Of a stretch of DNA of 64,000 bases, positions 4,642 through 64,000 are shown one piece after another. The translations under genes and the position numbers were made by a program. This DNA is from Candidatus Daviesbacteria bacterium (lineage in GTDB: Bacteria; Patescibacteriota; Microgenomatia; Daviesbacterales; UBA10151): contig JACPKL010000001.1 of NCBI GenBank assembly GCA_016187035.1, positions 14,607 to 78,606 of the forward strand, written 5' to 3'. How positions within the stretch are numbered: the stretch's first letter is position 1; each line of letters opens with the position of its first letter. The notes beneath the pieces were generated by a model. That model saw only the letters and a program-made list of their open reading frames with translations. It was not told the origin of the DNA and made no database searches.

Positions 4642-6021
4642 TTAATCAAATAACCCCAATTGCGGAATTTCATTCTTTTCCTCTTTTACAGATTCATCAT
4701 CAGACTGCCAAATTTTCACTACCCCATATACTCCATCATAACCAGGATCTATCACTAAATCACCGTCTCTGTCTTTTTTTACTCCTTCTGCAATTCTTTC
4801 TCCTGAGATTTTAGCTATTTCCTGAATGTCTACTTTGGTCAGAATCTTGATCTCACTACCTAAAGCAGTTGTTAGCTTTTTGTATTCATTTAAGACCTTC
4901 TGGGTTGTTGGAGCAGTATTAAAAGCCTCTGCTATTACCTGTAATAATGGTACTAACATTCTATATTCTGGCCTATCTAGGTTTTTGCTTTTAACCACCC
5001 CTTCTTCTTTAATTTCCCCTAACTCCTCTGCTCCTCTGTCTGCTAACTTCTCCACTCTTTCCATTACTCCTATTGTCAAACCTCTTTTGCAAACAGGACA
5101 GGTTGTTCCCTTAAGTTTTGAATCCTGCGGAGCATACTTAACATTACAATTTCTATGTCCTGTGTAGTGATACTTGCCTTCTTCAGGATAAAACTCAATT
5201 GTCCCAATCACTTTGTCATTGCGAGGGTCGCCGTGGCGACCCGTGGCAATCTCTTTTATTTCCAAGGAAGATTGCTTCGCTTTGCTCGCAATGACGGATA
5301 GTTGAGTAATAGCTCTCCATAAATTGTCATACGTAAACTCAGCCAGATCAAAAACTGTAGACTCCCTGCCTAGATTGGGTAAAGAATGAGCATCAGAAGA
5401 AGATAAAATTGATCTGTTGTCTAACTCTTTAATTCTCCAATTCATGGCCGGGGAAGAGCTTAAACCAGTTTCTATACCATAAACATATTCTGTTAAATCT
5501 TCAAAACACTCTTCCAAACTATCATAGCCGGATTCTGAACCAAATATGCCAAACCAGGGTGTCCAGGCATGCGCGCATACAAAAATAGCCTTGTCTGAAA
5601 CCTGCAAAGCTAAACTTAACAAATCTTTGGAAGATATTCCCACAATTGGTCTGCCGTCTGAGCCTAAATTAGCCCTTCTTGAAAGAAGTTCTTTTTGAAA
5701 CCTTTCTGCTGATGAGAAATCCGGTAAGTAAACTAAATTATGCACCCTTCTGCCCCTGCCTTTGTGAGAATAAATTGAAGCAATTTCTACAGTTAATAAA
5801 AATTTAACACTTGGATCTTTAGGATAAGTTAAAAAACCTGAGCCATCTTCTTTAAGCTGATTTTTAAGTTCTGTTAACCAAAGCGGATGCAGAAAATCTC
5901 CTGTACCTAATAAATCTATACCTTTCAGCTTACACCACTGCACCAAATTAGGAACATTCAGTTGTTGTGAACAAGCCCTGGAATACCTGGAATGAATATG
6001 CAAATCTGCAATATATGCCAT
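4642..6021 (-). CDS. Endonuclease Q-like PHP-domain nuclease with zinc finger
   Basis: MAYIADLHIHSRYSRA, GTGDFLHP, AHAWTPW, SSSDAHS, GKYHYTGHRNC..CPVCKRG and a C-terminal IDPGYDGVYG, collinear with archaeal EndoQ as I recall it. Carries an 81-bp in-frame palindromic element. Confidence 0.8.
   Translation of the reverse strand: MAYIADLHIHSRYSRACSQQLNVPNLVQWCKLKGIDLLGTGDFLHPLWLTELKNQLKEDGSGFLTYPKDPSVKFLLTVEIASIYSHKGRGRRVHNLVYLPDFSSAERFQKELLSRRANLGSDGRPIVGISSKDLLSLALQVSDKAIFVCAHAWTPWFGIFGSESGYDSLEECFEDLTEYVYGIETGLSSSPAMNWRIKELDNRSILSSSDAHSLPNLGRESTVFDLAEFTYDNLWRAITQLSVIASKAKQSSLEIKEIATGRHGDPRNDKVIGTIEFYPEEGKYHYTGHRNCNVKYAPQDSKLKGTTCPVCKRGLTIGVMERVEKLADRGAEELGEIKEEGVVKSKNLDRPEYRMLVPLLQVIAEAFNTAPTTQKVLNEYKKLTTALGSEIKILTKVDIQEIAKISGERIAEGVKKDRDGDLVIDPGYDGVYGVVKIWQSDDESVKEEKNEIPQLGLFD
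5215..5295. repeat. Palindromic element family A, 81 bp, in-frame in the EndoQ-like gene
   Basis: GTCATTGCGAG-GGTCGCCGTGGCGACCC-GTGGCAATCTC..GGAAGATTGC-TTCGCTTTG-CTCGCAATGAC. Translated as SVIASKAKQSSLEIKEIATGRHGDPRNDK. Confidence 0.9.
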
Positions 6022-9282: not shown

Positions 9283-9303
9283 TACCAATTTATTGTACGA
9301 TCG
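9283..9303. repeat. 21-bp direct repeat copy 1 (TACCAATTTATTGTACGATCG), upstream of fic
   Basis: Identical 21-mer at 9818-9838. Lies 3 nt after the PaaX-like stop and ~47 nt upstream of the fic ATG. Carries a TACAAT -10-like hexamer on the minus strand. Confidence 0.8.
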
Positions 9304-9305
9304 CA

Positions 9306-9818
9306 TCACAAAATGGTATTAATGGTATTAGCAGTTAAACGATTGACTTCCATTACCACCACCCACTTCTCTATTCCCAAATCTTTAATATATAATTCCA
9401 ATTTATCAAAAACGTTTCTTTTGCTCACCCAAACACTTTTTTGTAAATGCTTAAAACCCCATTTTTTAAGATTTCTTCTAAATAAGTTTCTGATAATTCT
9501 TTTTTGTTCTGGAATATCAAATATTACTATCCTCCACTTTCCATCCCAATCTTTCTCTTCATAATTATCACTGATTAATTCCTTTCCAGCTTGAGTCAGT
9601 TTTATTATTACATCATCCTTGACTTTTGTCTGTTCAATCAACCCCCCTTCCCTTAGTCTTCTTAACGCTTGGGATAAAGAGGATTTCCTAAGCTCAGGGA
9701 TTCCGTATCTGTAACGGTAATGATGATAGGTAAAATCTTCTAAACGAACATAACCATCCACTGTTTTTTCCAATACCAGAAGAATCTTATTTGTCAAACT
9801 CTTTTTATAAACCCTCAT
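9306..9818 (-). CDS. Small PaaX-like regulator (N-terminal wHTH plus Cas2-like/PaaX middle domain)
   Basis: WDGKWRIVIFDIPEQKRIIRNLFRRNLKKWGFKHLQKSVWVS matches the PaaX/Cas2-fold pattern. N-terminal wHTH (LSQALRRLREGGLIE). Paralog at 25795-26310. Confidence 0.6.
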   Translation of the reverse strand: MRVYKKSLTNKILLVLEKTVDGYVRLEDFTYHHYRYRYGIPELRKSSLSQALRRLREGGLIEQTKVKDDVIIKLTQAGKELISDNYEEKDWDGKWRIVIFDIPEQKRIIRNLFRRNLKKWGFKHLQKSVWVSKRNVFDKLELYIKDLGIEKWVVVMEVNRLTANTINTIL

Positions 9819-12900: not shown

Positions 12901-13100
12901 AAATAAGGCATAACCGGTAAAAAATAAATCTTTTGAGCTAAACTTTGGGAAGTTTGAATAGTAGCAATATTAGGGTTGATTAAGACTGATTCAATACCCT
13001 CTTCTTTTAAGGCTTTTAAAGCCTGGGAACCGGAATAATCAAATTCCCCTGCCTCACCTATTTTTAATGCTCCTGAACCTAAGACTAAAACTTTTTTCAT
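9957..13100 (-). CDS. carB: Carbamoyl-phosphate synthase large subunit
   Basis: 1047 aa with duplicated ATP-grasp halves. N-terminus MKKVLVLGSGALKIGEAGEFDYSGSQA, second half KKAIVLGSGPYRIGSSVEFDW, and an MGS-like C-terminus. Confidence 0.95.
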   Translation of the reverse strand: MKKVLVLGSGALKIGEAGEFDYSGSQALKALKEEGIESVLINPNIATIQTSQSLAQKIYFLPVMPYFVEHVIKKEKVDGIFLGFGGQTALNCGLSLDRLGIFKKYKVKVLGTPVKSIEITEDRKLFAEALGQIGVKVPKGGFAKTVSEALKIAEKLGYPLLIRSGFSLGGLGSGVINNKEELIKMVSVSLKHAPQIAVEEYLKHWKEVEYEVVRDNQGNKITVCNMENMDPLGIHTGESIVVAPSQTLNNYQYHFLRRLSLQVIEHLGVVGECNIQFALNPKNNDYRVIEVNARLSRSSALASKATGYPLAYIAAKIGLGFNLAELRNSVTGSTSAFFEPALDYIVVKLPRWDLQKFVGAKQMIGSEMKSVGEVMAIGRSFPESLQKAVRMLETGQDGLLSNQIDDTKLLPTTERLFVIAQRFSKGDQLENIYQETGIDPWFLSQIEEIVEFEQKLKNFQLIAEAKRLGFSDKLLAKKLNTTEDKIRQFRKKHGIIPRVKHIDTLAAEYPAKTNYLYLTYHGEESEESKESAVKKAIVLGSGPYRIGSSVEFDWCCVTAAQTLKAKGLQTIIINCNPETVSTDYDIADKMYFEELSFERVSDIYDLEQTACLVLGFGGQIPNNLALPLYQAGYNILGTSPESIDKAEDRNKFSEILDKLGIEQPPWQSFKAVSEAASFSKKIGYPVLIRPSYVLSGSLMNVAYCGKELKKYLQQAGDYSKHPVVVSKFIEGAKEIEIDGVGQKGKLIIYALSEHIENAGVHSGDATMVLPPQRLYLETIRRVKLATKKIIKHLNISGPFNIQFLAKDNKILVIELNLRASRSFPFVSKVTGKNFVNLATRVLLGEEIKQTFKTLDLDYVGVKAPQFSFHRIKGADPRLRVEMSSTGEVACFGDDLPEAYLKALLATGFKMPKRSVFLSIGGAKNKLDMLIPAKKLLRLGLKIYATDHTHKFLKESGIRNTRVYKISEAKHPSILDFLKKGEIDLAINIPEKGSIRGETDGYIIRRNCVDLGVPLITNLQAAETLVSALTPKRLKDLKVKSWDEYISC

Positions 13101-14194
13101 AGTAAATCCAAAAATTCATCAAATAGAAAACTAGCATCAAATGGGCCTGGACTTGCCTCAGGATGGAATTGAACAGCCAAGAATGGTTTTGTTTTATGCC
13201 TGATTCCTTCATTTGTACCGTCATTTAAATTAACAAACCATTCCTGCCAATCATTAGATAAAGATTTCATATCCACAGCAAAACCATGATTTTGAGAAGT
13301 GATAATGGCTTTTTTATTCTGCATATCTTGCACTGGCTGGTTTTGACCTCTGTGACCGAACTTCAATTTATAAGTATTGCCCCCTGCTGCTAAAGCCAGA
13401 ATTTGGCTGCCTAAACAAATACCAAATATTGGTATGTCTGTTTTCAGTAATTGTCTAGTTGTTTGGATGGTGGCTTTGGCTTGTTTTGGATCTCCTGGTC
13501 CTGGAGACACTGAGACTCCGTCAAAGTCCAATTTAGAATTTAAAGGATTAAAATCCCAAGGGACTTTGGTTATTTTTACGCCTCTTCTAACCAAACTTCT
13601 GATAATGTTCATCTTTACACCACAATCAACTAAGACTATATTTTTCTTACCACTGCCAAAAACTTCTACCTGATCTGTACTAACCTGTGGTAACACATTT
13701 CCTGCATTAGGATCATAATTTTGAATTTTGAATTTTGCTCTGCCGAAGGCAGTTTCGCTATGCGAAACATTTTGAATTTCTATCCTTCCCAGCATGACTC
13801 CATGCTCTCGCAGTTTCGTGGTTAATTGCCTGGTATCTATTCCCTGCAAAGCAGGTATTCCCTCTTCTTTAAGCCAAACATCTAGGTTCTTTTGACTTTC
13901 AAAGTGTGATGGATGATCAATATAATTTTGGACAATTAACCCTTTTACTTGAATTTTTTTTGATTCCCAAAACTCTGGATCTGGTACTCCATAATTTCCT
14001 ACCAGAGGATAGGTTAAAACCAGTATCTGTCCAAAATATGAAGGATCTGTCAAAGACTCAGGATAGCCTACCATACCAGTATTAAAAACCACCTCTCCTG
14101 AGGTACTCGAGAGTCCACTGGACTCTCTCCCCTCTGCCCCAAAAGATTGTCCTAAAAAAACTGTCCCATCGGACAGAATTAATTTTCCCTGCAT
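13097..14194 (-). CDS. carA: Carbamoyl-phosphate synthase small (glutaminase) subunit
   Basis: GEVVFNTGMVGYPESLTDPSY, with GATase triad context GICLGSQIL and VQFHPE. Start set at the ATG at 14194 (MQGKLILSDG). The track's longer ORF (to 14302) would overlap pyrB by 92 nt. Holds two in-frame repeat insertions. Confidence 0.9.
   Translation of the reverse strand: MQGKLILSDGTVFLGQSFGAEGRESSGLSSTSGEVVFNTGMVGYPESLTDPSYFGQILVLTYPLVGNYGVPDPEFWESKKIQVKGLIVQNYIDHPSHFESQKNLDVWLKEEGIPALQGIDTRQLTTKLREHGVMLGRIEIQNVSHSETAFGRAKFKIQNYDPNAGNVLPQVSTDQVEVFGSGKKNIVLVDCGVKMNIIRSLVRRGVKITKVPWDFNPLNSKLDFDGVSVSPGPGDPKQAKATIQTTRQLLKTDIPIFGICLGSQILALAAGGNTYKLKFGHRGQNQPVQDMQNKKAIITSQNHGFAVDMKSLSNDWQEWFVNLNDGTNEGIRHKTKPFLAVQFHPEASPGPFDASFLFDEFLDLL
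13718..13790. repeat. Composite insert in carA: heptamer tract (AATTTTG x3) plus two short hairpins plus a heptamer-like end
   Basis: AATTTTGAATTTTGAATTTTG-CTCTGCCGAAGGCAG-TTTCGCTATGCGAAA-CATTTTGAATTTC. Encodes IQNVSHSETAFGRAKFKIQNY in the inter-domain linker. Confidence 0.75.
14106..14133. repeat. Palindromic element family B core, in-frame in carA
   Basis: CTCGAGAGTCCACTGGACTCTCTCCCCT, a 28-mer identical to 40550-40577. Encodes GRESSGLSS. Confidence 0.85.
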
Positions 14195-14210: not shown

Positions 14211-15173
14211 TCAAAGTCTTCCCAAAACCAGTGAAAGTAAAGCTTCCCTGATATACAAACCATTTCTGGCTTGTTGAAAATAAATAGCATTAGGATGCGC
14301 ATCTAATGAGGAATCCATTTCATTAACCCTGGGCAAAGGATGCATAAGTTTTACTCCTTTGTCTAAATACTCTTTAAAAGAAGCATCTAAAATAAACTTA
14401 TCTTTAATCTTTTTATACTGGCTTAGATTGATAAATCTTTCTTTTTGCACCCTGGTTTGATATAAAAAATCTACTCCCTTCAAATCCTCAGGCAGCTTAT
14501 CCCAAACCTTAAATTCTCTCTTTTTTTCTTTTAAAATTTTTAGATATTCATCTGGCATAGCCAAAGAAGGGTGAGATATAAAAATCTGCTTTACATTAAA
14601 GTGAGACAAAGCAATAGAGAGGGCATGAACGGTCCTGCCATATTTTAAATCCCCCATTAAAGCTACAGTTATTCCATCAAGCTTGCCTGCCCTTGCACCG
14701 TCCGGTGCGGGGCCTGCTTCTTTCATCATGGTATAAAGATCTAACATGGTTTGCGTTGGGTGCTGATTAGGACCATCTCCAGCATTAATGACTGGGATTT
14801 GAGCTACATCTGCAGCTTCTTTGGCAGCACCGGCTCTGGGATGCCTGATAATCAAAACATCTGCATATGAATCCATAATTCTGATGGTGTCTGAAAAACT
14901 TTCCCCTTTATGGATAGATGTAGACTCAGGGTCATTAAAACCAATAATGCCCATGCCAATTTTTTGGGCTGCTGATCTAAAAGATTGTTCAGTGCGGGTA
15001 GATTGTTCAAAAAATAATACTGCTGCAATTTTTCCCTGGGCTAGAGTGTAGTTAGATCTGTCTTTTTTAACAAAGGCAGGGTCAAATTTTTTGGCTGTTT
15101 TTAAAATAAAAAGCAGTTCCTCTTTGGAAAAATCATTTATATCAATAATGTCTCTACCTTTAAAACTTTTCAT
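14211..15173 (-). CDS. pyrB: Aspartate carbamoyltransferase catalytic subunit
   Basis: STRTEQSF, HPTQ, LKYGRTVHA and HPLPRV motifs. Confidence 0.9.
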   Translation of the reverse strand: MKSFKGRDIIDINDFSKEELLFILKTAKKFDPAFVKKDRSNYTLAQGKIAAVLFFEQSTRTEQSFRSAAQKIGMGIIGFNDPESTSIHKGESFSDTIRIMDSYADVLIIRHPRAGAAKEAADVAQIPVINAGDGPNQHPTQTMLDLYTMMKEAGPAPDGARAGKLDGITVALMGDLKYGRTVHALSIALSHFNVKQIFISHPSLAMPDEYLKILKEKKREFKVWDKLPEDLKGVDFLYQTRVQKERFINLSQYKKIKDKFILDASFKEYLDKGVKLMHPLPRVNEMDSSLDAHPNAIYFQQARNGLYIREALLSLVLGRL

Positions 15174-25705: not shown

Positions 25706-25794
25706 ATGATTTTAGCAGGTTTTACCTTGGCGGGCTAAGGAGACTTTTTTACTTCGAGTCTTATATTCTCGTCCTATACTTATACACGATCGTA

Positions 25795-26310
25795 TTATTG
25801 TATGTCCAGAGGACCATACTTTTCAGATTCAAAAACCCATACCCACTTCTCCACTCCTAAATCTCTAATATAATTGAATAATTTATCAGTAACGTTCTTT
25901 TTGGAAATCCAGACACTTTTTTGAAAATGTTTAAAACCCCATTTTTTTAAATTCCTTCTAAAAAGATCTCTTATCAACCTCTTTTGTTCTGGTATATCAA
26001 AAATCACTATTCTCCATTTTCCATCCCAACTTGCTGTACCATCACCAGTCAGCAATATCACTGTCTTACCTTCATCTGTCAATTTCAAAACCACTTGACC
26101 GATATCTTTCTTGTCAGTTTCTATCAGACCCTTCTCTTTTAACCTGGCAATAGCCTTAGATAAAGCAGATTTCTTCAGCTCAGGAATCCCATATCTGTAG
26201 CGATAATGATGGTAGGTAAAATCTTCTAAACGTACATAACCATCAATACTTTTTTCTAAAAAAGTCAAAAGGCTATAACTCAAACTTCCTCTTCTAACCT
26301 CCATACCCAT
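25795..26310 (-). CDS. Small PaaX-like regulator, paralog 2
   Basis: WDGKWRIVIFDIPEQKRLIRDLFRRNLKKWGFKHFQKSVWIS. Long identical blocks with 9306-9818 (YVRLEDFTYHHYRYRYGIPEL). Sits directly upstream of the ABC pair. Confidence 0.6.
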   Translation of the reverse strand: MGMEVRRGSLSYSLLTFLEKSIDGYVRLEDFTYHHYRYRYGIPELKKSALSKAIARLKEKGLIETDKKDIGQVVLKLTDEGKTVILLTGDGTASWDGKWRIVIFDIPEQKRLIRDLFRRNLKKWGFKHFQKSVWISKKNVTDKLFNYIRDLGVEKWVWVFESEKYGPLDIQ

Positions 26311-26364
26311 AACAATAACCGATCGTTTAATAGTATGTCAACCCCGACTGAGTCGGGGTCAAGA

Positions 26365-28328: not shown

Positions 28329-29318
28329 CTAATGATGTTCCTGTTTATGTAACTTTACACCATTATCGTCTACTGTCAAGGTGGCCACTTCATATCCATC
28401 CTCTTTACTCTTAACTCCAGATAGATTAAACCATTTATTGTCATCAGTTATTGCTGAAATTGACACTAAACAATCCTCCTTTTTACCGCTAACCACTTCA
28501 TCCACACTCCAGACTTTACTGTATCTTTTAGTAATTTCTGGATCAGCAGACCACCCTCTCGTCTCACAAGCAGCACCCAAAGCTTTAGCAGCTACTACTG
28601 CCATCACTCCCTCTTCAAATCCACCAATACCCATTATCAGATAAATTCCTTTGTTGTACCTTCGGGGATCAGTACAGGATAAAATAGAAGGCATAAAATC
28701 CCCTGCTTTGATTAAAATCAGATTAACCCCAAACTTTTGACAGGCATTAATATAATGGGCATTCCTATCTCTGTCCATCATGACCACATTAATCTCCGAA
28801 GGTTTAATTTTAAAAGTATCAACTACCTCTGCTAAATTCTCTTCAACAGGATTCCGAATGGAAATCCTGCCTTTAAGCTGTGGTGGGCCAAACAGCTTAT
28901 CCATATAATCAATATCCAAAGGAGTAGGCATTAAACCTTTATGTGACCCAACAGCTATCACAGATACAGCCCCAGGACTATTTAGTTTGGCCGCTTTTGA
29001 ACCTTCCACTACATCATTCACCATATCCAGCTGATGTTTTCCTAAGCCAAAAGTGCCCATTAAAGTTGGTAAGCTTTCCCCATACTGGTGGATATGTTTT
29101 CTGCCCTCAGACCCAACTACCTCCAGTACAAATGGAATGTCAGTTAAAGCTGTATACATGGCATCAACCCCTGTTTGATCTATCAGCTTTTCTCTTGCTT
29201 TAGATTCTTCCTCATCTAAAAAATCTTCTGGTGTGAAACCTTTTTCTTTAATCAGTCTGGCAACTGAAATAGCAGTCAATTCTGTAACTCTGGTTATGTA
29301 TTTTTTGACTTGATTCAT
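28329..29318 (-). CDS. glpX: Fructose-1,6-bisphosphatase class II (GlpX)
   Basis: Collinear GlpX-like blocks VTELTAISVARL, DVVEGS, YMDKL, AGDFMPSILSC and GIGGFEEGVMAV. Confidence 0.8.
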   Translation of the reverse strand: MNQVKKYITRVTELTAISVARLIKEKGFTPEDFLDEEESKAREKLIDQTGVDAMYTALTDIPFVLEVVGSEGRKHIHQYGESLPTLMGTFGLGKHQLDMVNDVVEGSKAAKLNSPGAVSVIAVGSHKGLMPTPLDIDYMDKLFGPPQLKGRISIRNPVEENLAEVVDTFKIKPSEINVVMMDRDRNAHYINACQKFGVNLILIKAGDFMPSILSCTDPRRYNKGIYLIMGIGGFEEGVMAVVAAKALGAACETRGWSADPEITKRYSKVWSVDEVVSGKKEDCLVSISAITDDNKWFNLSGVKSKEDGYEVATLTVDDNGVKLHKQEHH

Positions 29319-29692
29319 GGTGTAATAACCTGAACATCTGTCATTGGAAAATCAGATTTATTGTGTGTAATCAAAGTTAATTTATTTAATTTTGCCTGGG
29401 CTGCTAAAAAGCAATCTAAAAGATGTACCTTTTTTGTCTTTAGACTCATCTTTCGATATTTTGCCGCTATTCTTGCTGCGTCTAAATTCACAGAAAGAAT
29501 TATAAACTCATTTAACAACTTTTCAAATGCTTTTTCTTCTTGAGATGTGGCTTTTGACAAGAATTCTCCTGCCACTATAGAAGAAATCTTAATTTGTTTC
29601 TTTTTGATTAGTTTACTCAAAAGTTCTGATTCTGGAGAATAACCCTTAGCAGCTCTGATAAAGATATTTGTATCCGGTAAATAACCTATCAC
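29315..29692 (-). CDS. vapC: PIN-domain toxin VapC
   Basis: 125 aa. N-terminal acidic residue (LPDTNIF), LLDCFLAAQA and a THN C-terminal region. Overlaps the upstream antitoxin by 4 nt. Confidence 0.8.
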   Translation of the reverse strand: MIGYLPDTNIFIRAAKGYSPESELLSKLIKKKQIKISSIVAGEFLSKATSQEEKAFEKLLNEFIILSVNLDAARIAAKYRKMSLKTKKVHLLDCFLAAQAKLNKLTLITHNKSDFPMTDVQVITP

Positions 29693-37022: not shown

Positions 37023-39347
37023 TTAATTTTCCTCCGGCTTCATTTCTCCCCAAGTTTTGCCTGCTTTTAAATCAACTACCACTGGTACTGATAATTCTAG
37101 AGCATTTTCCATTTTTTCTTTGACCATTTTAGCAATCTGGCGGACTTGTGGTGAGCCTGCCGAACCATCACATTCAAACAAAAGCTCATCATGAACTTGA
37201 AGAATTAACTTACAGTTATCAGTTTTCGGTTTTCTGTTTTCAGATATTGGTTTGCCGGTTTTCTGTTTACCAGATTGACTGATAACTGATGAACTTTCAT
37301 CCGACGACTGACCACTGAGAACCGATAACTCCTTATCAATTTCCACCATAGCCTTTTTAATCATGTCAGCTGAAGATCCCTGAATAGGATGATTAATTGC
37401 TGCTCTTTCTCCTTGAGATCTGATCATTCTATTTGAGGCTTTTAGCTCCGGCATATATCTTTTTCTACCCCAGATAGTCTCTACATAACCATTTTCATAC
37501 CCAAAAGCTAAAGTTTGCTCCATCCATTCCCGTACTTTAGGAAACTGCTCAAAATATTCCACTATGTATTGACGGGCTACTTCATATTCCACTCCTAGTT
37601 GCCTGCTTAAAGCATGTGGACCCTGGCCATAAAGAGTAGCAAAATTCATGGTTTTCCCAACATTTCTTTGCTCATAAGAAACCTTTCCCACAGGTACTTT
37701 AAAGATCTTTGCAGCAGTGGCGCTGTGGATATCCAAGCCTGCTAAAAAAGCCTGTTTTAATCCTGGATCATCTGCCAGATGAGCCATAATCCGAAGTTCT
37801 ATCTGAGAATAATCAGCTCCAAATAATACTTTTCCCTTGGGAGCAATAAAGGCTTTTCTGACCTCTCCTCCAAGTGTACCCCTGATTGGGATATTTTGAA
37901 GGTTGGGGTCCTGGGAAGAAACACGTCCTGTGGCAGCTCCTTCCACATTAAAAGTAGAATGTATTCTGCCGTCTTCCCCAACTGATTTTGGTAAAGCGTC
38001 AATATAGGTGGAAACTAACTTGAAAAGTTGGCGGTATTCCAACAAAAGGGGTACAGCAGGGTGAGCTATAGATAATTCTTTCAAAGTCTCCTCATTTGTT
38101 GACCTGCCGGTTTTGGTTTTTTTAAAAACAGGCAATTTTAACTCGTCAAAAAGCACTACCTGCAGTTGTTTTGGGCTGTTCAGATTAAACTGATGACCTA
38201 TTTTAGAGTAAATTTCTTTTTCAATATTAGTTAATTTAGCTTTTAAATCGGTCCCAAGCTTATTTAAAAACTTAAGATTTATTAATATTCCTGACTTGGA
38301 CATTTTTTCCAAAACCGGCTGGACTTGGAGATCTAAATCAGTAGTGTCATTGCGAGGAAGTTTACCCTGAGCCGATTCGGCCTGAGGGCTCACGGCCTCG
38401 AAGGCTTGTCGAAGGGTGGCAATCTTCCCACTTGAGGTGGAAGATTCCCACGGCCCTTCGGGCCTCGGAATGACAGGAAAAGGTAATCTGTTTATCAAGC
38501 TCTTAAATTCCAATTCTTCGAATAATTCTCTTACCTTATTAGCATCGTAATCATGTACTCTACAAGCTGCTAAATCTAGCTTGACAGGGGCATTTGTATC
38601 TAGAGTAGCTAATTTTTTACTCATCACAGCTGATTCTGCTCCCTCGGCCAGTAACTTTTGCATTCTTTCGGGTAAGGTCTTCAAATTTTTAGGCAAGTAG
38701 ATTTTCTCAATAGAACCGAATTGGTGAATCAATTTAGTGGCTGTTACATCTCCTATACCAGCTACCCCTGGAATGTTATCTGAAGCATCTCCTGCCAAAG
38801 CTTTGTAATCTATCATCTGAGGAGGCATAAAACCATATTTAGCTACAAACTCCTCTACTCCATAAAGGCCCACATCCTGTAAAGTTTTTTTTGGCATTAA
38901 TACTTTAATATTTTCATCAATCAGCTGCATAATATCCCTGTCACCCGTGACTATTATAACTTCTAATTTTTGAGCTTTGAGCTTTGAGCTTTGAGTTGCC
39001 AAAGCGCCTATTAAATCATCTGCCTCATAACCTGACAGCCTAAACTCAGGAATATTAAAAGCTTTCACTACCTGATAAACCCTATCATACTGGGAAGATA
39101 AACCATCATCAGCCGGTCCCCTGGTAGCTTTATACTGAGTGTAAGCTTGATGCCTGAATGTTGGCCCTTTTTCATCCCAGGCAATGGCTAAAAAATCAGG
39201 TTTTAATTCATTTAAAGTCCGAAGAAGCATTGAGGAAAAACCATATACAGCATTAATTAACTCACCATAAGATGTGGAAAAAGGAGGAGTGGCGTGATAA
39301 GCCCGATGAAGTAAAGCATTCCCATCAACCAAAACCAAATGTTTCAT
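37023..39347 (-). CDS. polA: DNA polymerase I: 5'-nuclease plus polymerase domains, no 3'-5' exonuclease domain
   Basis: N-terminal 5'-3' exonuclease (VLVDGNALLHRAYHA, GDRDIMQL, GVAGIGDVTATKLI). Pol A motifs DYSQIELRI, RNVGKTMNFATLYG and QVHDELLFE. The two domains are joined by a translated 129-bp palindromic element. A second ~40-aa heptamer-derived insert precedes QVHDE. Confidence 0.9.
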   Translation of the reverse strand: MKHLVLVDGNALLHRAYHATPPFSTSYGELINAVYGFSSMLLRTLNELKPDFLAIAWDEKGPTFRHQAYTQYKATRGPADDGLSSQYDRVYQVVKAFNIPEFRLSGYEADDLIGALATQSSKLKAQKLEVIIVTGDRDIMQLIDENIKVLMPKKTLQDVGLYGVEEFVAKYGFMPPQMIDYKALAGDASDNIPGVAGIGDVTATKLIHQFGSIEKIYLPKNLKTLPERMQKLLAEGAESAVMSKKLATLDTNAPVKLDLAACRVHDYDANKVRELFEELEFKSLINRLPFPVIPRPEGPWESSTSSGKIATLRQAFEAVSPQAESAQGKLPRNDTTDLDLQVQPVLEKMSKSGILINLKFLNKLGTDLKAKLTNIEKEIYSKIGHQFNLNSPKQLQVVLFDELKLPVFKKTKTGRSTNEETLKELSIAHPAVPLLLEYRQLFKLVSTYIDALPKSVGEDGRIHSTFNVEGAATGRVSSQDPNLQNIPIRGTLGGEVRKAFIAPKGKVLFGADYSQIELRIMAHLADDPGLKQAFLAGLDIHSATAAKIFKVPVGKVSYEQRNVGKTMNFATLYGQGPHALSRQLGVEYEVARQYIVEYFEQFPKVREWMEQTLAFGYENGYVETIWGRKRYMPELKASNRMIRSQGERAAINHPIQGSSADMIKKAMVEIDKELSVLSGQSSDESSSVISQSGKQKTGKPISENRKPKTDNCKLILQVHDELLFECDGSAGSPQVRQIAKMVKEKMENALELSVPVVVDLKAGKTWGEMKPEEN
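37212..37330. repeat. Degenerate heptamer array with inverted ends (CAGTTATCAG / CTGATAACTG) in polA
   Basis: CAGTTAT CAGTTTT CGGTTTT CTGTTTT CAGATAT TGGTTTG CCGGTTT TCTGTTT ACCAGAT TGACTGA TAACTGA ... encodes LSGQSSDESSSVISQSGKQKTGKPISENRKPKTDN just upstream of QVHDELLFE. Confidence 0.7.
38346..38474. repeat. Palindromic element family A, 129 bp, in-frame in polA
   Basis: GTCATTGCGAG..(extra GC-rich hairpins CCTGAGCCGATTCGGCCTGAGGGCTCACGGCCTCGAAGGC)..GTGGCAATCTTCCCACTTGAGGTGGAAGATTCCCAC-GGCCCTTCGGGCC-TCGGAATGAC. Translated as VIPRPEGPWESSTSSGKIATLRQAFEAVSPQAESAQGKLPRND. Confidence 0.9.
38971..38995. repeat. Heptamer tract TGAGCTT x3.5 (in polA)
   Basis: TGAGCTTTGAGCTTTGAGCTTTGAG encodes SKLKAQKLE. 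Confidence 0.85.
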
Positions 39348-40275: not shown

Positions 40276-41334
40276 CTAAAACAGCTGTTTGGCTAAGTTT
40301 AGATACTCCGGGTAGCCGTTTTGAGCCATTAAATACCACCACTCTACTCCCCAAAGATAGGCTTCATTAAAAGCTGTTTTTCTAACAAAGTTAATATTAT
40401 CTTTAAAATCAGCCAGTGTAAAAAGTTTTGCCTGAAACTGATAAGAATCCTCCCTTTTATCTCTTCTGGCTAACCACGGTTCTGCCTGAAGCTCTGAAAT
40501 TATAATTTTTTTATTCTGCTGCCTTCCTGCCACCTCGAAGGTGGGCTTTCTCGAGAGTCCACTGGACTCTCTCCCCTTCGAGGTGTTACTGACCAGATAA
40601 GCTTTTAAACTATACATTCCAGGAGTAAAAGGATAACTGGTATACATATTCACCATAGAATTAAAAGATCTTCTGTAAATAGAAACACCTAATACATCAG
40701 CCAGCTTAAAAGAACTCACCCAGCTCCCCCATTCACCGCTATCTGTGATAATGACCGGCCGGCTGTCTAATCTTTTAACCAAACCAATCTCTTCTTTCAG
40801 AAATAAAGAATTAGGAGAATCACAGCCTTCTCCAAACCAAAAAGCAAAAGGCTCATTTTCTATCTGCCAGGCCCCGATAGCCTGATTACCCTGATATCTT
40901 TCCACTACTTTTTGAACAAACTGCATGGTTTTTTGTCGCCTTTTCGGTAAAGATACTTTTTTAGCCCAATCAGGATACTGGCATTCCGGCCAACGAGGCT
41001 GCCTGGCGCCCAAGACTAAAATTACATTCGCTCCTCTTTTTTCCGCCTCAGATAACATAAAGTCAGTTTCAGAAAAATCATATTGATCCTGCTCTGGCTC
41101 TAGACTATTCCAATAACTGGGAAGCCTTAAATTTTTAACTTTTAACTCATCCAAGATCTGAAGATAGACTTTTTGCCAATCCAATTTTAGAAACCTGGCA
41201 TACCTGGGGGAAAAAGTTACCCCATATTTAACTTGATCAGAAGAATAATACTTTTCAAAGATAAAAGATATAAAAATTATAACAGTTATAATAGTTATAA
41301 ATATTATGATAGCGGCTTTAAGTATTTTACCCAT
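40276..41334 (-). CDS. Membrane-anchored TIM-barrel glycoside-hydrolase-like protein (clan GH-A type NEP motif)
   Basis: N-terminal TM helix. WQIENEPF (acid/base-like NEP) and ISELQAEPW (candidate nucleophile Glu). Contains the family-B palindromic element in-frame. Confidence 0.5.
   Translation of the reverse strand: MGKILKAAIIIFITIITVIIFISFIFEKYYSSDQVKYGVTFSPRYARFLKLDWQKVYLQILDELKVKNLRLPSYWNSLEPEQDQYDFSETDFMLSEAEKRGANVILVLGARQPRWPECQYPDWAKKVSLPKRRQKTMQFVQKVVERYQGNQAIGAWQIENEPFAFWFGEGCDSPNSLFLKEEIGLVKRLDSRPVIITDSGEWGSWVSSFKLADVLGVSIYRRSFNSMVNMYTSYPFTPGMYSLKAYLVSNTSKGRESSGLSRKPTFEVAGRQQNKKIIISELQAEPWLARRDKREDSYQFQAKLFTLADFKDNINFVRKTAFNEAYLWGVEWWYLMAQNGYPEYLNLAKQLF
40531..40585. repeat. Palindromic element family B, full 55-bp copy, in-frame in the GH-like gene
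   Basis: CACCTCGAAGG-tgggctttc-TCGAGAGTCCACTGGACTCTCT-cc-CCTTCGAGGTG. An 11-bp perfect outer inverted repeat surrounds the central palindrome. Encodes TSKGRESSGLSRKPTFEV. Confidence 0.85.
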
Positions 41335-50464: not shown

Positions 50465-50851
50465 TCAAACTTTAGCGAACTGCTTTTCTAGCTTATCATC
50501 AAACGTTCTAAAATCTTCAACCTTGAGCTTCTTCGCATAAAGTAGGTTATAGCAATCTTCTATTTCTAATGTAGTGTTTCTGAATAAATGCAAAACCTCA
50601 AACAATAAATCTCGATTTTCAATATTAAGACTTAAGGTCAGTATCTTGTATAAAGCCTCAGTCAAACTATCTCTATCTTGACCATAACTAGCTTCCAAAA
50701 CCCAGGCTACCTCAAAAAAGACCACCACGGAAGTTATCAATTCCAATTCACCTCGAGCTGCTTTGAGAAATAGCTCTTTAGACTGCTGGTAATGAGAATC
50801 AATATCATTTAGCAAAAATCTAAGGAAGTAGTTTGTATCAACAAAAGTCAT
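50465..50851 (-). CDS. vapC: PIN-domain toxin VapC
   Basis: MTFVDTNYFLRFLLND, with acidic residues spaced as in a PIN domain. Overlaps the antitoxin by 4 nt. Confidence 0.8.
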   Translation of the reverse strand: MTFVDTNYFLRFLLNDIDSHYQQSKELFLKAARGELELITSVVVFFEVAWVLEASYGQDRDSLTEALYKILTLSLNIENRDLLFEVLHLFRNTTLEIEDCYNLLYAKKLKVEDFRTFDDKLEKQFAKV

Positions 50852-53252: not shown

Positions 53253-54485
53253 TCACTTAACTCCATATGCTAACTCCACCATGATTTTTGCAGTTGAAGT
53301 CATTGGAGTCTCCCTGCCAAATATATGAAAATCAAACCCTTCCTTACGGCCTACTCTTTTTAGCTCCTCAAAAGCTTCCTGATCCCTTGGCCCGCCTCTT
53401 CTTATCACAATTGGGTAAGCAGGCTTTGGTTTAATTTCCCTAAGCCCTTCTACAAAGCCCATTAAAGTTTCATAAATATCAGTAAAATTGGCTGTGCCTC
53501 CCACAAACCAACAACCCTTAAGTCCTGGTTTTCCTAGAACAATTTTAGTTAATTTTTTCAATTTTTCTCTGGGAGGGTTGCCTGAGTGTTCAGTATAATT
53601 AGCCGCCCTTCCTCCAAAAGTTACTAAAGCATCCATGTTAACTATAGACCCTCCACCTCCTGCAGCAATGACTGCAATGTCTCCATCCCGAAGGTCCCAA
53701 TAAACAGAGCCTGCAGTACCTCTGTGATCTCCTTCATCTATTTTTCTGGCTTCAATTTCAGCCTCAGTTGGGGGTCTGCCAAACAAATTTCTTTGGGGAA
53801 ATTTAATTTCCCTTCTAAAGTCTGCATCATCGTCCAAGATAACTTTGGCATCTAAAGCATAGACTCTCTTGTCATTGCGAGGTCCGCCCTGGCGGACCGT
53901 GGCAATCTTTCCATTTGAGATGGAAGATTCCTCGCTTATGCTCGGAATGACAGAAGTGGTAGAAACTACCAAAGGATTTATTTCTGCCAGTTCTAAGTCA
54001 TATTTTGTGAATACCTCCCAAAGCTCTGTAATAGTATCTGTAAATTGGACATAATGTTCAACGATCGTTGAAGGTAACGTCATATTTAGAGGATCAACAG
54101 GAAAACTCTCTGCGCCTTTTTCCTCTACTCCTGTCCCACCTTTGCCAAAAGTTAACACAGGTCCTCTTGTTGCTGTGGAGTATGAGAAAGACAGATAATA
54201 CTCCTTACCAACATCAACCATTTGTTCAACTAAAACCTTCTCCACCTTCTCATTGTTAATTGTCTTTGAAAGTAATTCTTCAATCTTAAATCTTAAATCT
54301 TCCATCTTCTCTACCACCAAAATCCCCCCAGCTTGTGCTCTTTTTCCAGACAAAACTTGAGCTTTCAAAACCAAAGGAAGTTTTAAGGTTACTTCCTGAT
54401 CTGCAGATTCTAAGAGTTGTGACTGGGGAACATTAATCCCACAACTTTTAAAAAGTTGTTTGCCTTCAAATTCGAAGAGTTGCAT
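53253..54485 (-). CDS. Succinyl-CoA synthetase beta-subunit / ATP-citrate-lyase beta-like ATP-grasp protein
   Basis: N-terminal ATP-grasp (MQLFEFEGKQLFKSCGI). C-terminal ligase-CoA-like IAAGGGGSIVNMDALVTFGGRAANYTEHSGNP. Carries an 81-bp family-A element in-frame between the halves. Confidence 0.75.
   Translation of the reverse strand: MQLFEFEGKQLFKSCGINVPQSQLLESADQEVTLKLPLVLKAQVLSGKRAQAGGILVVEKMEDLRFKIEELLSKTINNEKVEKVLVEQMVDVGKEYYLSFSYSTATRGPVLTFGKGGTGVEEKGAESFPVDPLNMTLPSTIVEHYVQFTDTITELWEVFTKYDLELAEINPLVVSTTSVIPSISEESSISNGKIATVRQGGPRNDKRVYALDAKVILDDDADFRREIKFPQRNLFGRPPTEAEIEARKIDEGDHRGTAGSVYWDLRDGDIAVIAAGGGGSIVNMDALVTFGGRAANYTEHSGNPPREKLKKLTKIVLGKPGLKGCWFVGGTANFTDIYETLMGFVEGLREIKPKPAYPIVIRRGGPRDQEAFEELKRVGRKEGFDFHIFGRETPMTSTAKIMVELAYGVK
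53871..53951. repeat. Palindromic element family A, 81 bp, in-frame in the SucC-like gene
   Basis: GTCATTGCGAG-GTCCGCCCTGGCGGAC-CGTGGCAATCTTTCCATTTGAGATGGAAGATTCCTC-GCTTATG-CTCGGAATGAC. Translated as SVIPSISEESSISNGKIATVRQGGPRNDK. Confidence 0.9.
54285..54301. repeat. Heptamer tract CTTAAAT x2.4 (in the SucC-like gene)
   Basis: See 4229-4259. Confidence 0.8.
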
Positions 54486-56559: not shown

Positions 56560-56634
56560 TGGTGGCAGCGACAGGGATCGAACCTGTGACCTAGCGGTTA
56601 TGAGTCGCTCGCTCCGCCACTGAGCTACGCTGCC
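56560..56634 (-). tRNA. tRNA with anticodon CAU; G1-C72 paired, so elongator Met (or Ile2 if lysidine-modified); CCA encoded
   Basis: Own fold of the reverse complement: GGCAGCG-TA-GCTC-AGTGGCG-GAGC-G-AGCGA-CTCATAA-CCGCT-AGGTC-ACAGG-TTCGATC-CCTGT-CGCTGCC-ACCA. Confidence 0.85.
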
Positions 56635-58122: not shown

Positions 58123-58194
58123 CGCGGGGAAGTGTAACGGCTGCACACAAGGCTCATAATCTTGAGGCAGTGGGTTCGACTCCCGCCCCCGCAA
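58123..58194 (+). tRNA. tRNA with anticodon CAU and a C1xA72 mismatch: probable initiator tRNA-fMet with atypical D-arm and anticodon stem
   Basis: CGCGGGG..GTGT-AACGGCTGC-ACAC..CAAGG-CTCATAA-TCTTG-AGGCA-GTGGG-TTCGACT-CCCGC-CCCCGCA-A. No encoded CCA. Lacks the three consecutive G-C pairs usual in initiator anticodon stems. About 1 nt short of canonical length. Confidence 0.65.
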
Positions 58195-58440
58195 CCTTTT
58201 TTAATCTTAAATTTCTTCATTCTGTTGGGGCATTAAACAAAATTAAAAAATGATAAAAAAAGTTGGTTATAATGTTGACCATAGGCAGTTTGATAAAGAT
58301 AGTTTCATGTTGCCCATTCTACTTTTTAGAAGTAAAGATAAATTGCCTTTTTGTGTAAGAAAATAGTAATAGATGAGTGTTTTATATTGAAATTAGAGAT
58401 AAGAATCTGTTAAAGTTTGTAAGAAGTTTACGAAAGTCTT

Positions 58441-62737: not shown

Positions 62738-62995
62738 ATGAAAACTGTCAGTATTGTTCGAGATAGAGGTCAGCTAACGATACCTGATTCTATTCGTAGG
62801 GTTGTAAATTGGATTGCTCCTATGTCTGCTGTATCTATTTCTGTTGTAAAACCTGATGAGATTATTATCAAACCCCACCAGCAACAAATTGATTGGGATC
62901 AGGTTTGGGAAAATATAAGAAAATCTAGAGCCAGTTTAGGTAAGGGTAAGATTAGTGCAGCAGAATTTTTAGAGCAGGATCGTAGATCACATTAA
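62738..62995 (+). CDS. vapB: AbrB/MazE-type antitoxin
   Basis: IVRDRGQLTIPDSIRRVVNW swapped-hairpin motif. Stop overlaps the vapC start. Confidence 0.75.
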   Translation: MKTVSIVRDRGQLTIPDSIRRVVNWIAPMSAVSISVVKPDEIIIKPHQQQIDWDQVWENIRKSRASLGKGKISAAEFLEQDRRSH

Positions 62996-63414
62996 TGAAT
63001 ACCCTAGTTATTGACACATCAGTATTTGTCAAATGGTTAAGCCAAAATAATGAACAAGATCTAGAAAATGCAGATAAAATTCTCCAGGACGTTAAAAATG
63101 GTCAAGCAGAACTTATAGTTCCGGAGTTAATTAAATACGAAGTTGGAAATGTTCTTCTAAAAGGTAAGCAATTAACACCAAATCAAGCACATATTTCTTT
63201 TGGGACTGCATATTCCTTACCGATTACCTTCATTGCAGATTCAGAGCAACAGGCAAAAGATACTTACTCCCTCGCTTATAACTTAGGAATTAACTACTAT
63301 GACGCCTCGTTTATGTCATTGGCTAAACAATATAATGCTACACTAGTAACGAATAACATAAAACACCAAGGAAAAGATTCAACTATTAAAGTTGTCGCAC
63401 TTAAAGATTACTAA
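62995..63414 (+). CDS. vapC: PIN-domain toxin VapC
   Basis: MNTLVIDTSVFVKWL and YDASFMSLAKQYNATLVTNN. PIN acidic residues are present. Confidence 0.8.
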   Translation: MNTLVIDTSVFVKWLSQNNEQDLENADKILQDVKNGQAELIVPELIKYEVGNVLLKGKQLTPNQAHISFGTAYSLPITFIADSEQQAKDTYSLAYNLGINYYDASFMSLAKQYNATLVTNNIKHQGKDSTIKVVALKDY

Positions 63415-63415
63415 G

Positions 63416-63487
63416 TGGGCGGACCAGGATTTGAACCTGGAACCAAATCTGTATAAGAGATTTGCTCTACCGTTGAGCTATCCGCCC
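63416..63487 (-). tRNA. tRNA-Ile with anticodon UAU (reads AUA)
   Basis: Own fold of the reverse complement: GGGCGGA-TA-GCTC-AACGGTA-GAGC-A-AATCT-CTTATAC-AGATT-TGGTT-CCAGG-TTCAAAT-CCTGG-TCCGCCC-A. All stems are Watson-Crick paired. No encoded CCA. Confidence 0.85.
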
Positions 63488-63504: not shown

Positions 63505-64000
63505 CTAGAGCTTGGCTCTCTGGGCAATTGAGACCTCTACCTGGGTAACATCTCTGCCATACTTTAATCTTGATAACTCCCTGATGGCTTGTCCTATTTG
63601 AGGCTTTAACATTGCTTTCCATTTAACCATGTCTTTGGTGGTATCCAGAGAAAACGGCACTACCGGTTCACCGCTGACTATAGTCTTGATATAAGCATGA
63701 GGAGATTCAATATTAACCAGATCCTGCTCAGAAAAAGTAGGGGAAAACTCATGTTGTAAATAGTTAGCGTCTGTTACTCCTACTCGGAAAGCTATTACAG
63801 TACCCACATTACCAAAAACCGCATTCTTTAAATCTTCGCCAATTTGGCCGATAAATTGATTTGCCACAGTTAAATTAAGTCTATATTTCCTGGCTTCTGA
63901 TAATATATCTGCAAAAGTATCTGTGGCAAAATTTTGGAACTCATCAACATATAAATAAAAATCGCGTCTATCCTCCATCTGCATATCTGTTCTGGACATG
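63505..64000 (-). CDS. C-terminal part of a type IV secretion coupling-protein-like (TraD/VirD4/TraG-family) ATPase; N-terminus outside the window
   Basis: FYLYVDEFQNFATDTFADILSEARKYRLNLTVANQFIGQI (Walker-B-like DEF plus the ARK..L..A.Q block typical of T4CP/HerA-like ATPases). The ORF is open to the window edge. Confidence 0.6.
   Translation of the reverse strand, partial: MSRTDMQMEDRRDFYLYVDEFQNFATDTFADILSEARKYRLNLTVANQFIGQIGEDLKNAVFGNVGTVIAFRVGVTDANYLQHEFSPTFSEQDLVNIESPHAYIKTIVSGEPVVPFSLDTTKDMVKWKAMLKPQIGQAIRELSRLKYGRDVTQVEVSIAQRAKL

Follow-up and report, generated by a model that had tools for sequence, protein, structure and literature searches.

How did the same short, GC-rich palindrome come to lie in frame inside two unrelated genes of one genome? 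The question is raised by a stretch of 64,000 nt of Candidatus Daviesbacteria DNA (contig JACPKL010000001.1, positions 14,607 to 78,606; hereafter the window, to which coordinates refer), where the 28-mer CTCGAGAGTCCACTGGACTCTCTCCCCT occurs on the + strand at 14106-14133 and 40550-40577. Both copies lie within minus-strand open reading frames (ORFs), carA and a glycoside hydrolase (GH)-type TIM-barrel gene, and both read GRESSGLS. We conclude, with a probability of about 0.7, that the core of this repeat is a very short, GC-rich, non-autonomous, mobile and selfish hairpin module of AT-rich (~37% GC) Daviesbacteria and similar low-GC bacteria. The core is copied between unrelated loci and genomes. 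It is found alone (carA), nested in a small hairpin element (the GH gene and a gene for a CCA-adding enzyme), or as a slot in larger elements delimited by TGTCAT...ATGACA, and its persisting copies in coding regions preserve the reading frame.

The identity of the 28 nt at both positions and their common reading, which had been proposed in an initial annotation of this DNA, are borne out by the window sequence and its ORFs. The 19-nt palindrome GAGAGTCCACTGGACTCTC matches only two sites of the window, even when up to three mismatches are allowed, and had no match in 100 shuffled sequences, which rules out a chance origin of the copies. The unit kept across contexts is 25-27 nt long, (Y)A-CTCGAGAGTCCANTGGACTCTCTCC. 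Its GC content is 56-65%, against 34-41% in the window, and it lacks stop codons in all six frames. A covariance model of the core (R1) scores 47.9 bits for the GH core and 54.4 bits for the carA cassette. The peptides predicted across the inserts are ..FGAEGRESSGLSSTSGEVV.. and ..NTSKGRESSGLSRKPTFEV... The larger of the two structures is in the GH gene, with the following parts:

40276..41334, minus strand: GH42/GH5/GH10-like TIM-barrel glycoside hydrolase with an N-terminal membrane helix (from Pfam, homologues and model)
40531..40585, plus strand: complete 55-nt nested palindromic element within this gene; the insert reads ..NTSKGRESSGLSRKPTFEVAG..
40531..40541, plus strand: left outer arm CACCTCGAAGG, 11 nt, pairing with 40575-40585
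40542..40549, plus strand: 8-nt spacer TGGGCTTT between outer arm and core
40550..40574, plus strand: core CTCGAGAGTCCACTGGACTCTCTCC, 25 nt, with an 8-bp stem GAGAGTCC/GGACTCTC and a 3-nt loop
40575..40585, plus strand: right outer arm CCTTCGAGGTG, 11 nt, perfectly paired with the left arm

The 55-bp structure with perfect 11-bp outer repeats, also part of the initial annotation, is confirmed by sequence and fold: it folds at -33.9 kcal/mol (z = -5.2), and none of 200 shuffled sequences was equally stable. The 28-mer and the right outer arm share 3 nt. In the protein, the element corresponds to an 18-residue insert (segment SKGRESSGLSRKPTFEVAG) that is missing in 119 of 120 homologues, the window protein being its sole carrier. 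The closest orthologue (P0122, locus L086; 72% amino acid and 78% nucleotide identity) is empty at this site (..KKLS -> SPNKKII..). The structural model of the protein is good, with a predicted local distance difference test (pLDDT) of 90 and a predicted template modelling score (pTM) of 0.87. The insert is modelled as a coil that links helix 238-251 to strand 276-283, and residues 263-271 of this predicted structure have a pLDDT below 50. In TIM barrels, helix-to-strand loops are generally on the face opposite the catalytic one, and by this rule the insert belongs to that face. The GH copy is thus predicted by the model to occupy a tolerant surface loop. No direct repeat flanks the 55-mer, either in the window or in its counterpart in locus L060 (see below), and in neither host gene is the core followed by a U-tract. 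A look-up of the exact GH protein returned no record.

The copy in carA, which encodes a CarA protein 100% identical to P0001 (Candidatus Daviesbacteria), has a different setting:

13097..14194, minus strand: carA, carbamoyl-phosphate synthase small subunit (TIGR01368, E 1.6e-132; PF00988 and PF00117)
14100..14103, plus strand: GAGG, half of a native 4-bp mini-stem around the cassette; its partner is CCTC at 14131-14134
14104..14130, plus strand: carA cassette TACTCGAGAGTCCACTGGACTCTCTCC, 27 nt, reading GRESSGL on the minus strand
14131..14134, plus strand: CCTC, second half of the native mini-stem
14090..14105, minus strand: native hairpin TACCTCAGGAGAGGTG (codons T-S-G-E-V), followed by GTTTTTAAT and flagged as terminator-like

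Here the cassette replaces the loop of about 6 nt of a native mini-hairpin, as shown by comparing the empty site of locus L083, GAGG-TATCCA-CCTC, with the filled site, GAGG-[27 nt]-CCTC. The net gain is 21 nt, i.e. seven codons, and the carA copy folds as the inner hairpin and a small neighbouring hairpin only. Aligning CarA orthologues around GEVVFNT shows the insertion, with both empty and filled states: in the majority of 120 close homologues this motif is preceded by 25 residues (..SFGxExSTS|GEVV), and in the window CarA by 32. In agreement with this, a phmmer alignment with human CPS1 has a 7-residue gap precisely at EGRESSG. The addition had initially been put at about nine residues, and the comparisons with empty orthologues and with CPS1 correct it to seven. 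The CarA model is poor in the domain of the insert (pLDDT ~40), which it places between strands 12-17 and 30-37.

The carA site is an insertion hot spot. We read it codon by codon in the DNA of eight variants. When empty (GAG GTA TCC ACC TCA GGC GAG GTG), it comprises three inverted repeats, all short, GAGGT-atcc-ACCTC-aggc-GAGGT. The first loop is where the core is found, GAGG|TACTCGAG..TCTCC (reverse complement)|CCTC, at the tip of a short inverted repeat that was already there. In other Daviesbacteria the second loop, ACCTCA|..|GGNGAGGT, is filled by two different hairpin cassettes of 21 nt each, TTGGGCGATGAGCCCACGTCC and GCCCCGATTGAATCGGGGTCA. Most of the 120 CarA homologues are empty at this position. 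The core state (GRESSGL and variants) is found in 16 of them, doubles included, and the inverted core (LLESPLD) in one. The cassette LGDEPTS is present in ten plus one double, the cassette APIESGS or APIKSGS in four plus one double, and two further states add 14 residues. The carA gene of L062 carries the identical 27 nt in reversed orientation at an unchanged position. That of L085 has a variant core, GAAAGGTCCAGTGGACCTTTC, which keeps every pair, together with a partial second copy, and the cores of L079 and L080 show point changes. Some of the substitutions in these three loci are compensatory. The homologue search that yielded the CarA proteins was independent of any DNA pattern, and among its 16 core inserts seven are identical and nine have one or two substitutions. 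Judged from these sequences, the divergence is consistent with decay in place. In a neighbour-joining (NJ) tree of the CarA proteins, built from the sequences without the insert region, the states are scattered: the core state turns up in at least eight places and the inverted state is sister to a core state. Empty, filled, doubly filled, inverted and with several cassettes, this loop is a natural experiment on the movement of palindromes and on the tolerance of proteins to them.

We searched for the core elsewhere with two scans, one of public genomes using the 19-mer with a free centre, and one of metagenomes using the exact 25-mer. The former, which had been proposed as a check of the initial annotation, gave 50 loci. 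Most of them are unrelated hairpins that differ in their flanks, but some have the non-palindromic flanks CTC...TCC in common with the core. The bare 19-mer matches in Bifidobacterium, Comamonadaceae, Solimonas and others were set aside as mostly unrelated hairpins or terminators with different flanks. The exact 25-mer was found in 28 metagenome loci with a GC content of 33-43% and many different flanks, in at least 15 gene contexts, which supports the early suggestion of a dispersed family. It is in frame in ORFs confirmed by Pfam as SecA, PurP-like (DUF1246/DUF1297), GT1, Rho, UvrC, CCA-adding enzyme, Wzy_C ligase, transketolase and GT2 glycosyltransferase. Two more host ORFs, MurB-like and TlyA-like, were identified by eye. 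The core also lies just upstream of purL and dnaB, in both cases with the sub-architecture ATCCTTCGTA-core-CGCTCAGGAT. In locus L060 the whole 55-nt architecture occurs in the same frame (..NSTSEGRESIGLSSKPSSEVNV..), and its outer stem differs from that of the window by a compensatory change from A-T to G-C. This locus was considered as an orthologue of the GH gene, and the alignment rejected it: it is a gene for a CCA-adding enzyme that carries the 55-nt element. An assembly artefact is unlikely, since the reading frame is kept in many independent assemblies. A DNA-uptake sequence was also discarded, the copy number being far below what is required.

Could these copies be non-mobile, i.e. the remains of a few ancient insertions that were inherited vertically, lost repeatedly and homogenized by gene conversion between the copies? 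In favour of such a history, the CarA proteins that carry the core rank among the nearest to that of the window, the NJ tree is poorly resolved and the window has just two copies. We nevertheless regard it as very unlikely. The core is in at least 15 distinct gene contexts, and several of its sub-architectures are each shared by two or more unrelated loci. Among 120 GH homologues only that of the window has the insert, and the gene for the CCA-adding enzyme of another genome carries the same 55-nt architecture. Finally, the identical 25-mer is found in metagenome-assembled genomes (MAGs) of Clostridia with a GC content of 45-50%. A 28-mer confined to carA and the GH gene by recent gene conversion would have argued against a dispersed family. 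It is not so confined: the 25-nt core is in 28 metagenome loci, 119 of the 120 GH homologues lack the insert, and CarA has both empty and filled states.

The MAGs with an identical 25-nt core at 45-50% GC are those of rumen and gut Clostridia/Bacillota (L001, L012, L026, L043 and L048). In these the core is part of a conserved element of about 170 nt that folds at -71 to -77 kcal/mol. In L026, genes for a tyrosine integrase and an ISL3-like transposase lie on either side of this element. Rfam had no match to it in L001 and L026, the two loci searched.

Is the copied unit the DNA or the peptide? Among the 15 core sites within long ORFs, seven are antisense and eight are sense relative to the host gene, and together they use five of the six frames. 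The readings are GRESSGLS (6 of 15 sites), LESPLDSL (5), TRESTGLSP (2), GESPVDSRV (1) and YSRVHWTLS (1). The sixth frame, RERVQWTLE, is only seen in the copy upstream of dnaB. The two frames containing Trp account for one site out of 15, when five would be expected (binomial p ~0.02). This under-use fits a filter for small, polar and flexible loops rather than selection for one peptide. That GRESSGLS is itself the selected unit, e.g. as a linear motif or a flexible linker, is suggested by its being the commonest reading (6/15), and we consider it extremely improbable. The same DNA has four other readings inside long ORFs, and the inverted reading LLESPLD is found at the very same carA site. 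Moreover, a profile-free search of 1.84 billion representative proteins with a 36-aa query from the window returned only unrelated, FG-GAP-like repeat proteins, and a 43-aa query of concatenated peptides returned no candidates. We infer that DNA is what is copied and that the peptide is not selected.

The core is usually part of something larger. The 55-mer is a composite in which the loop of an outer 34-nt hairpin holds the core. This hairpin occurs alone in L064 (positions 614-647, CACCTCCGAGGTGGTCTTTGACTCCTCGGAGGTG), where it makes up the last 12 codons of a RecF-like ORF. Its outer helix is paired at 11 of 11 positions in the window, L060 and L064, with two compensatory changes, a pattern that is statistically weak with n = 3. 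Across the 28 contexts, the best stem enclosing the core has a mean length of 5.6 bp, compared with 3.6 bp with mismatched flanks, and stems of at least 6 bp are found in 8/28 contexts, compared with 6% in the control. One geometry, with 8 nt from the outer stem to the core and 0-2 nt from the core back to the outer stem, recurs for five stems that differ from one another. The core of related genomes also adjoins the right terminus of larger palindromic elements: TGTCATTGCGAG...core...CTCGCAATGACA; ...GGATCCCGGATCAAGACA-core-GGTCCGGGATGACA; ...CCAGAATGACA; and ...CAGGATGACA. The termini TGTCATTGCGAG...CTCGCAATGACA (TGTCAT...ATGACA) are those of a first palindromic family of the window, whose elements are in frame in two genes:

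5213-5298: first-family element in a 459-aa ORF without Pfam match
53869-53954: first-family element in an ATP-grasp/citrate-binding protein

The window copies of this family carry a GGTCGCCACGGCGACC-type hairpin in the slot used by the core elsewhere. The initial annotation had described the core as a second family. It is a real repeat, but not an independent family: it is a module shared with the first, because it occupies the hairpin slot between first-family termini.

Hairpin cassettes other than the core are dispersed as well. A hairpin like (d), one of the other carA cassettes, is at 26341-26361 and also within an SMC-like gene in L080. One Daviesbacteria genome (L084) has the GC-rich hairpin CCTGACTGCCGTCAGGCAGG twice, in carA and in carB (10066 and 11214). 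In pyrB (ATCase), a GC-rich island at 14681-14722 on the minus strand forms the hairpin GCACCGTCCGGTGC and encodes ..EAGPAPDGARAGKLD.., where the L064 orthologue has ..EAGKING... From its sequence it looks like another in-frame hairpin insertion, of nine residues and with a different cassette. The polA gene (minus strand) has two low-complexity inserts, ..PRPEGPWESSTSSGKIATLRQAFEAVSPQAESAQGKLPRNDTT.. (38365-38474) and ..SGQSSDESSSVISQSGKQKTGKPISENRKPKTDN.. (about 37140-37250), the first of which is a composite TGTCAT...ATGACA element with the termini of the first family. In the core-less hairpin of L064, the first half, ACCTCCGAGGTGGTCTTTGAC (TSEVVFD), resembles ACCTCAGGAGAGGTGGTTTTTAAT (TSGEVVFN), adjacent to the carA site. 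This likeness could be a coincidence, reflect a target preference or indicate that the hairpin originated from carA.

The main rival to a mobile core is a functional cis element, acting as RNA or DNA and selected in place. It might bind a protein, stabilize the mRNA, pause ribosomes or, in carA, serve as an intragenic attenuator of pyrB-carA-carB. It is most plausible at carA, where the native hairpin adjacent to the core precedes GTTTTTAAT and a second hairpin followed by seven T is found 30 nt upstream. At this early position in the gene, two terminator-like hairpins flank the site, CTGTCCGATGGGACAG with T7 and ACCTCAGGAGAGGT with GTTTTTAAT after it; in other genomes it is the loop of the ACCTCAGGAGAGGT hairpin that takes up the other cassettes. 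A strong structure with conserved pairing also speaks for a function: the outer helix is fully paired in all three elements that have it, with its two compensatory changes, and the L085 variant GAAAGGTCCAGTGGACCTTTC retains all pairs. The first ~38 codons of carA are also almost devoid of synonymous variation among four orthologues, a sample that is biased for the core. Taking the third codon position as evidence of selection was rejected on this account, since three of the four sequences had been retrieved by an exact match to the core. We judge a functional role unlikely overall. The insert is missing in most orthologues of both host genes, which are functionally unrelated. The core occurs in both orientations and in five of six frames, its carA copies diverge in place, its GH copy has no U-tract, and no Rfam family matches it. 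Besides, pairing in a palindrome can also be kept for purely DNA-level reasons.

The upstream hairpin of carA deserves a comment of its own. CTGTCCGATGGGACAG, followed by TTTTTTT, is at 14150-14176 on the minus strand, within codons 6-14 of carA and just downstream of pyrB. It was flagged as terminator-like and has 100% nucleotide identity in five orthologues, including L062. The protein encoded at this place (LSDGTVFLG) is likewise highly conserved. Judging from its sequence and position, this hairpin could be a UTP-sensitive attenuator of the pyrB-carAB operon.

How would a mobile core have reached these sites? It would spread as selfish DNA and, once translated, extend a loop with neutral or near-neutral effect. 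Selection would act as a filter on length, letting through multiples of three (seven codons at the carA site), and on frame, favouring readings rich in Gly, Ser, Glu, Leu and Pro over the rare ones with Trp, rather than on any function of the peptide. We envisage two candidate routes. In the first, a single-strand transposase that recognizes hairpins would act in trans at extruded hairpins or at the centres of palindromes. In the second, a hairpin loop would break and be repaired by copying another palindromic element with matching arms (ACCTC/GAGGT). Such a match exists between the termini of the 55-mer (CACCTC/GAGGTG) and the repeats native to the carA site (ACCTC/GAGGTG). In both routes, modules would then merge and shuffle, as do the GC clusters of yeast mitochondria.

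Several results weigh against a core that is mobile in this way. Its copy number is low: the 64-kb window has two copies, and some 80 kb of sequence from four further Daviesbacteria loci has none. A search of 372 kb (the window and L051-L086) with covariance model R1 gave no copies beyond the known ones, and no decayed copies outside carA, which is unusual for a proliferating element. No transposase family of Pfam was found among 20 small or unknown ORFs of the window or among the genes called in L079-L086, and we found neither target-site duplications nor excision footprints. The NJ tree of CarA is star-like, so that repeated gain, repeated loss and recombination are inseparable in it. Some of the apparent conservation is also less telling than it seems. 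Four carA orthologues have a core that is 100% identical within flanks of 82-87% identity, a biased comparison as three of them were retrieved through the core. More generally, scans by exact match make the copies identical by construction, and the identity is therefore uninformative on conservation. Finally, the readings of the inserts are predictions from ORFs, made at the level of DNA.

Viral contigs and phage and plasmid collections had no match to it. Rfam, searched at gathering thresholds with the window and eight loci, had no family at the element and only tRNAs and one cobalamin riboswitch elsewhere. We also found no description of such an element in the searchable literature, queried with its sequence strings and for palindromic or MITE elements (miniature inverted-repeat transposable elements) of the candidate phyla radiation (CPR).

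The core can be compared with four known types of repeats. The Rickettsia palindromic elements (RPEs) of Ogata et al. 2000, as summarized in PMC10969869 and PMC1779305, are palindromic repeats of ~100-150 bp found in frame in many unrelated Rickettsia genes. They are translated into extra loops judged compatible with the fold, with no associated transposase (PMC10969869, PMC1779305). The core shares with RPEs the presence of in-frame palindromes in unrelated housekeeping genes of a small AT-rich genome and, in the DNA examined, the lack of an associated transposase. Like them it is inserted in frame in many unrelated genes (CarA, GH, SecA, Rho, UvrC and others) and located in surface loops, as indicated by the coil in the GH model with pLDDT 90 and, for CarA, by a low-confidence model and the gap relative to CPS1. 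The differences are clear. RPEs form Rickettsia-specific families with one conserved peptide each, whereas the core is 21-27 nt long (55 nt when nested) and is read in five frames and both orientations. It is also modular, usually inside other hairpins, and of low copy number. NCBIfam holds domain models for RPEs. At E <= 0.01 it only matched the host enzymes in CarA, the GH protein and PolA, and NCBIfam and Pfam together assigned the host proteins to host-enzyme families, with no RPE-type domain.

The second type is that of the yeast mitochondrial GC clusters (GC42 and relatives), GC-rich hairpins of 18-48 nt that stand alone or are merged at homologous sites, shuffle their modules and are transferred between species (PMC4478555). 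One of them is in frame in var1, and the mechanism of their mobility is unresolved (PMC4478555). The core and the carA cassettes are similarly GC-rich hairpins in an AT-rich genome, solo or merged, and shuffled. But the yeast clusters are mitochondrial, mostly intergenic, in high copy number and flanked by short AG/ACT direct repeats, while the core is bacterial, mostly intragenic and in low copy number, with no flanking duplication seen.

The third type, repetitive extragenic palindromes and the mosaic elements they form (REP/BIME), is extragenic, of high copy number, marked by a conserved GTAG or CGTC tag at one end of the palindrome and co-occurs with a gene encoding a REP-associated tyrosine transposase (RAYT) (PMC3733652). 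The resemblance lies in hairpins of 20-40 nt that lack target-site duplications, and in an imperfect, bulged stem, which a single-strand transposase could plausibly recognize. However, a tag (CTCGAG then TAG, on the reverse strand) is present in only 4 of 22 aligned contexts. Both window copies are intragenic, the copy number is low, and we saw no RAYT-like gene in the DNA examined.

Finally, some bacterial MITEs make in-frame fusions, such as ERIC and QMITE1 of Coxiella; they have terminal inverted repeats derived from insertion sequences, target-site duplications and a length of ~50-600 bp (PMC10969869, PMC5896051). The core elements are also non-autonomous, have inverted repeats and may lie inside ORFs. 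At their ends, the GH 55-mer has its perfect 11-nt arms and the composite relatives have TGTCAT...ATGACA, whereas the carA copy has only the native 4-bp GAGG/CCTC around it. Unlike in MITEs, no target-site duplication is visible, and the carA cassette replaces a 6-nt loop. In their behaviour RPEs and yeast GC clusters are the closest analogues, and the core is a member of neither. Its new features are the tiny unit, the location nested in hairpins, the multi-cassette hot spot in an essential gene and the identity of the core in distant phyla.

A bolder proposal, which we hold only tentatively and think somewhat doubtful, is that the core may belong to a new class of ultra-short (21-27 nt) hairpin cassettes that insert specifically at the apex of existing hairpins or at the centres of palindromes. 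If so, apex insertion would assemble nested, modular palindromes in successive steps and turn places within essential genes into insertion hot spots. The carA site would be one of these, with at least four alternative cassettes, double occupancy and in-place inversion. The identical core in CPR-like bacteria and in gut and rumen Clostridia would then imply a shared machinery of structure-directed mobilization, or horizontal traffic. Were the targeting of hairpin apices confirmed, it would point to a mobilization mechanism uncharacterized in bacteria.

The genomes of CPR bacteria (Patescibacteria) are small and densely packed, and their proteins often have unexplained insertions. Mobile GC-rich hairpin modules, read as predicted loop extensions, may be one concrete source of these. 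Such cassettes can be misleading when CPR genomes are aligned, used for phylogeny or searched for genes, and the intragenic hairpins they bring may affect replication, transcription and metagenome assembly.

The window has a few other features, independent of the core. Two paralogous genes for PaaX_M/Cas2-like winged-helix proteins (~170 aa), at 9306-9818 and 25795-26310, have 81% DNA identity. Each has a conserved upstream motif containing ACGATCG, and the associated repeats are at 9283-9549 and 25772-26029, 26305 and 35036. A gene of the same family follows carB in L082-L084. A tRNA-Ile gene with the anticodon TAT is at 63415-63487, and two tRNA genes with the anticodon CAT are at 56560-56634 and 58123-58196. 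In most bacteria, AUA is decoded by a CAT tRNA modified with lysidine. Three PIN-domain genes, which are likely toxin-antitoxin modules, are found within the 64 kb (29315-29692, 50465-50851 and 62995-63414), and a TraG-D_C fragment is at the window edge (63505-63999).

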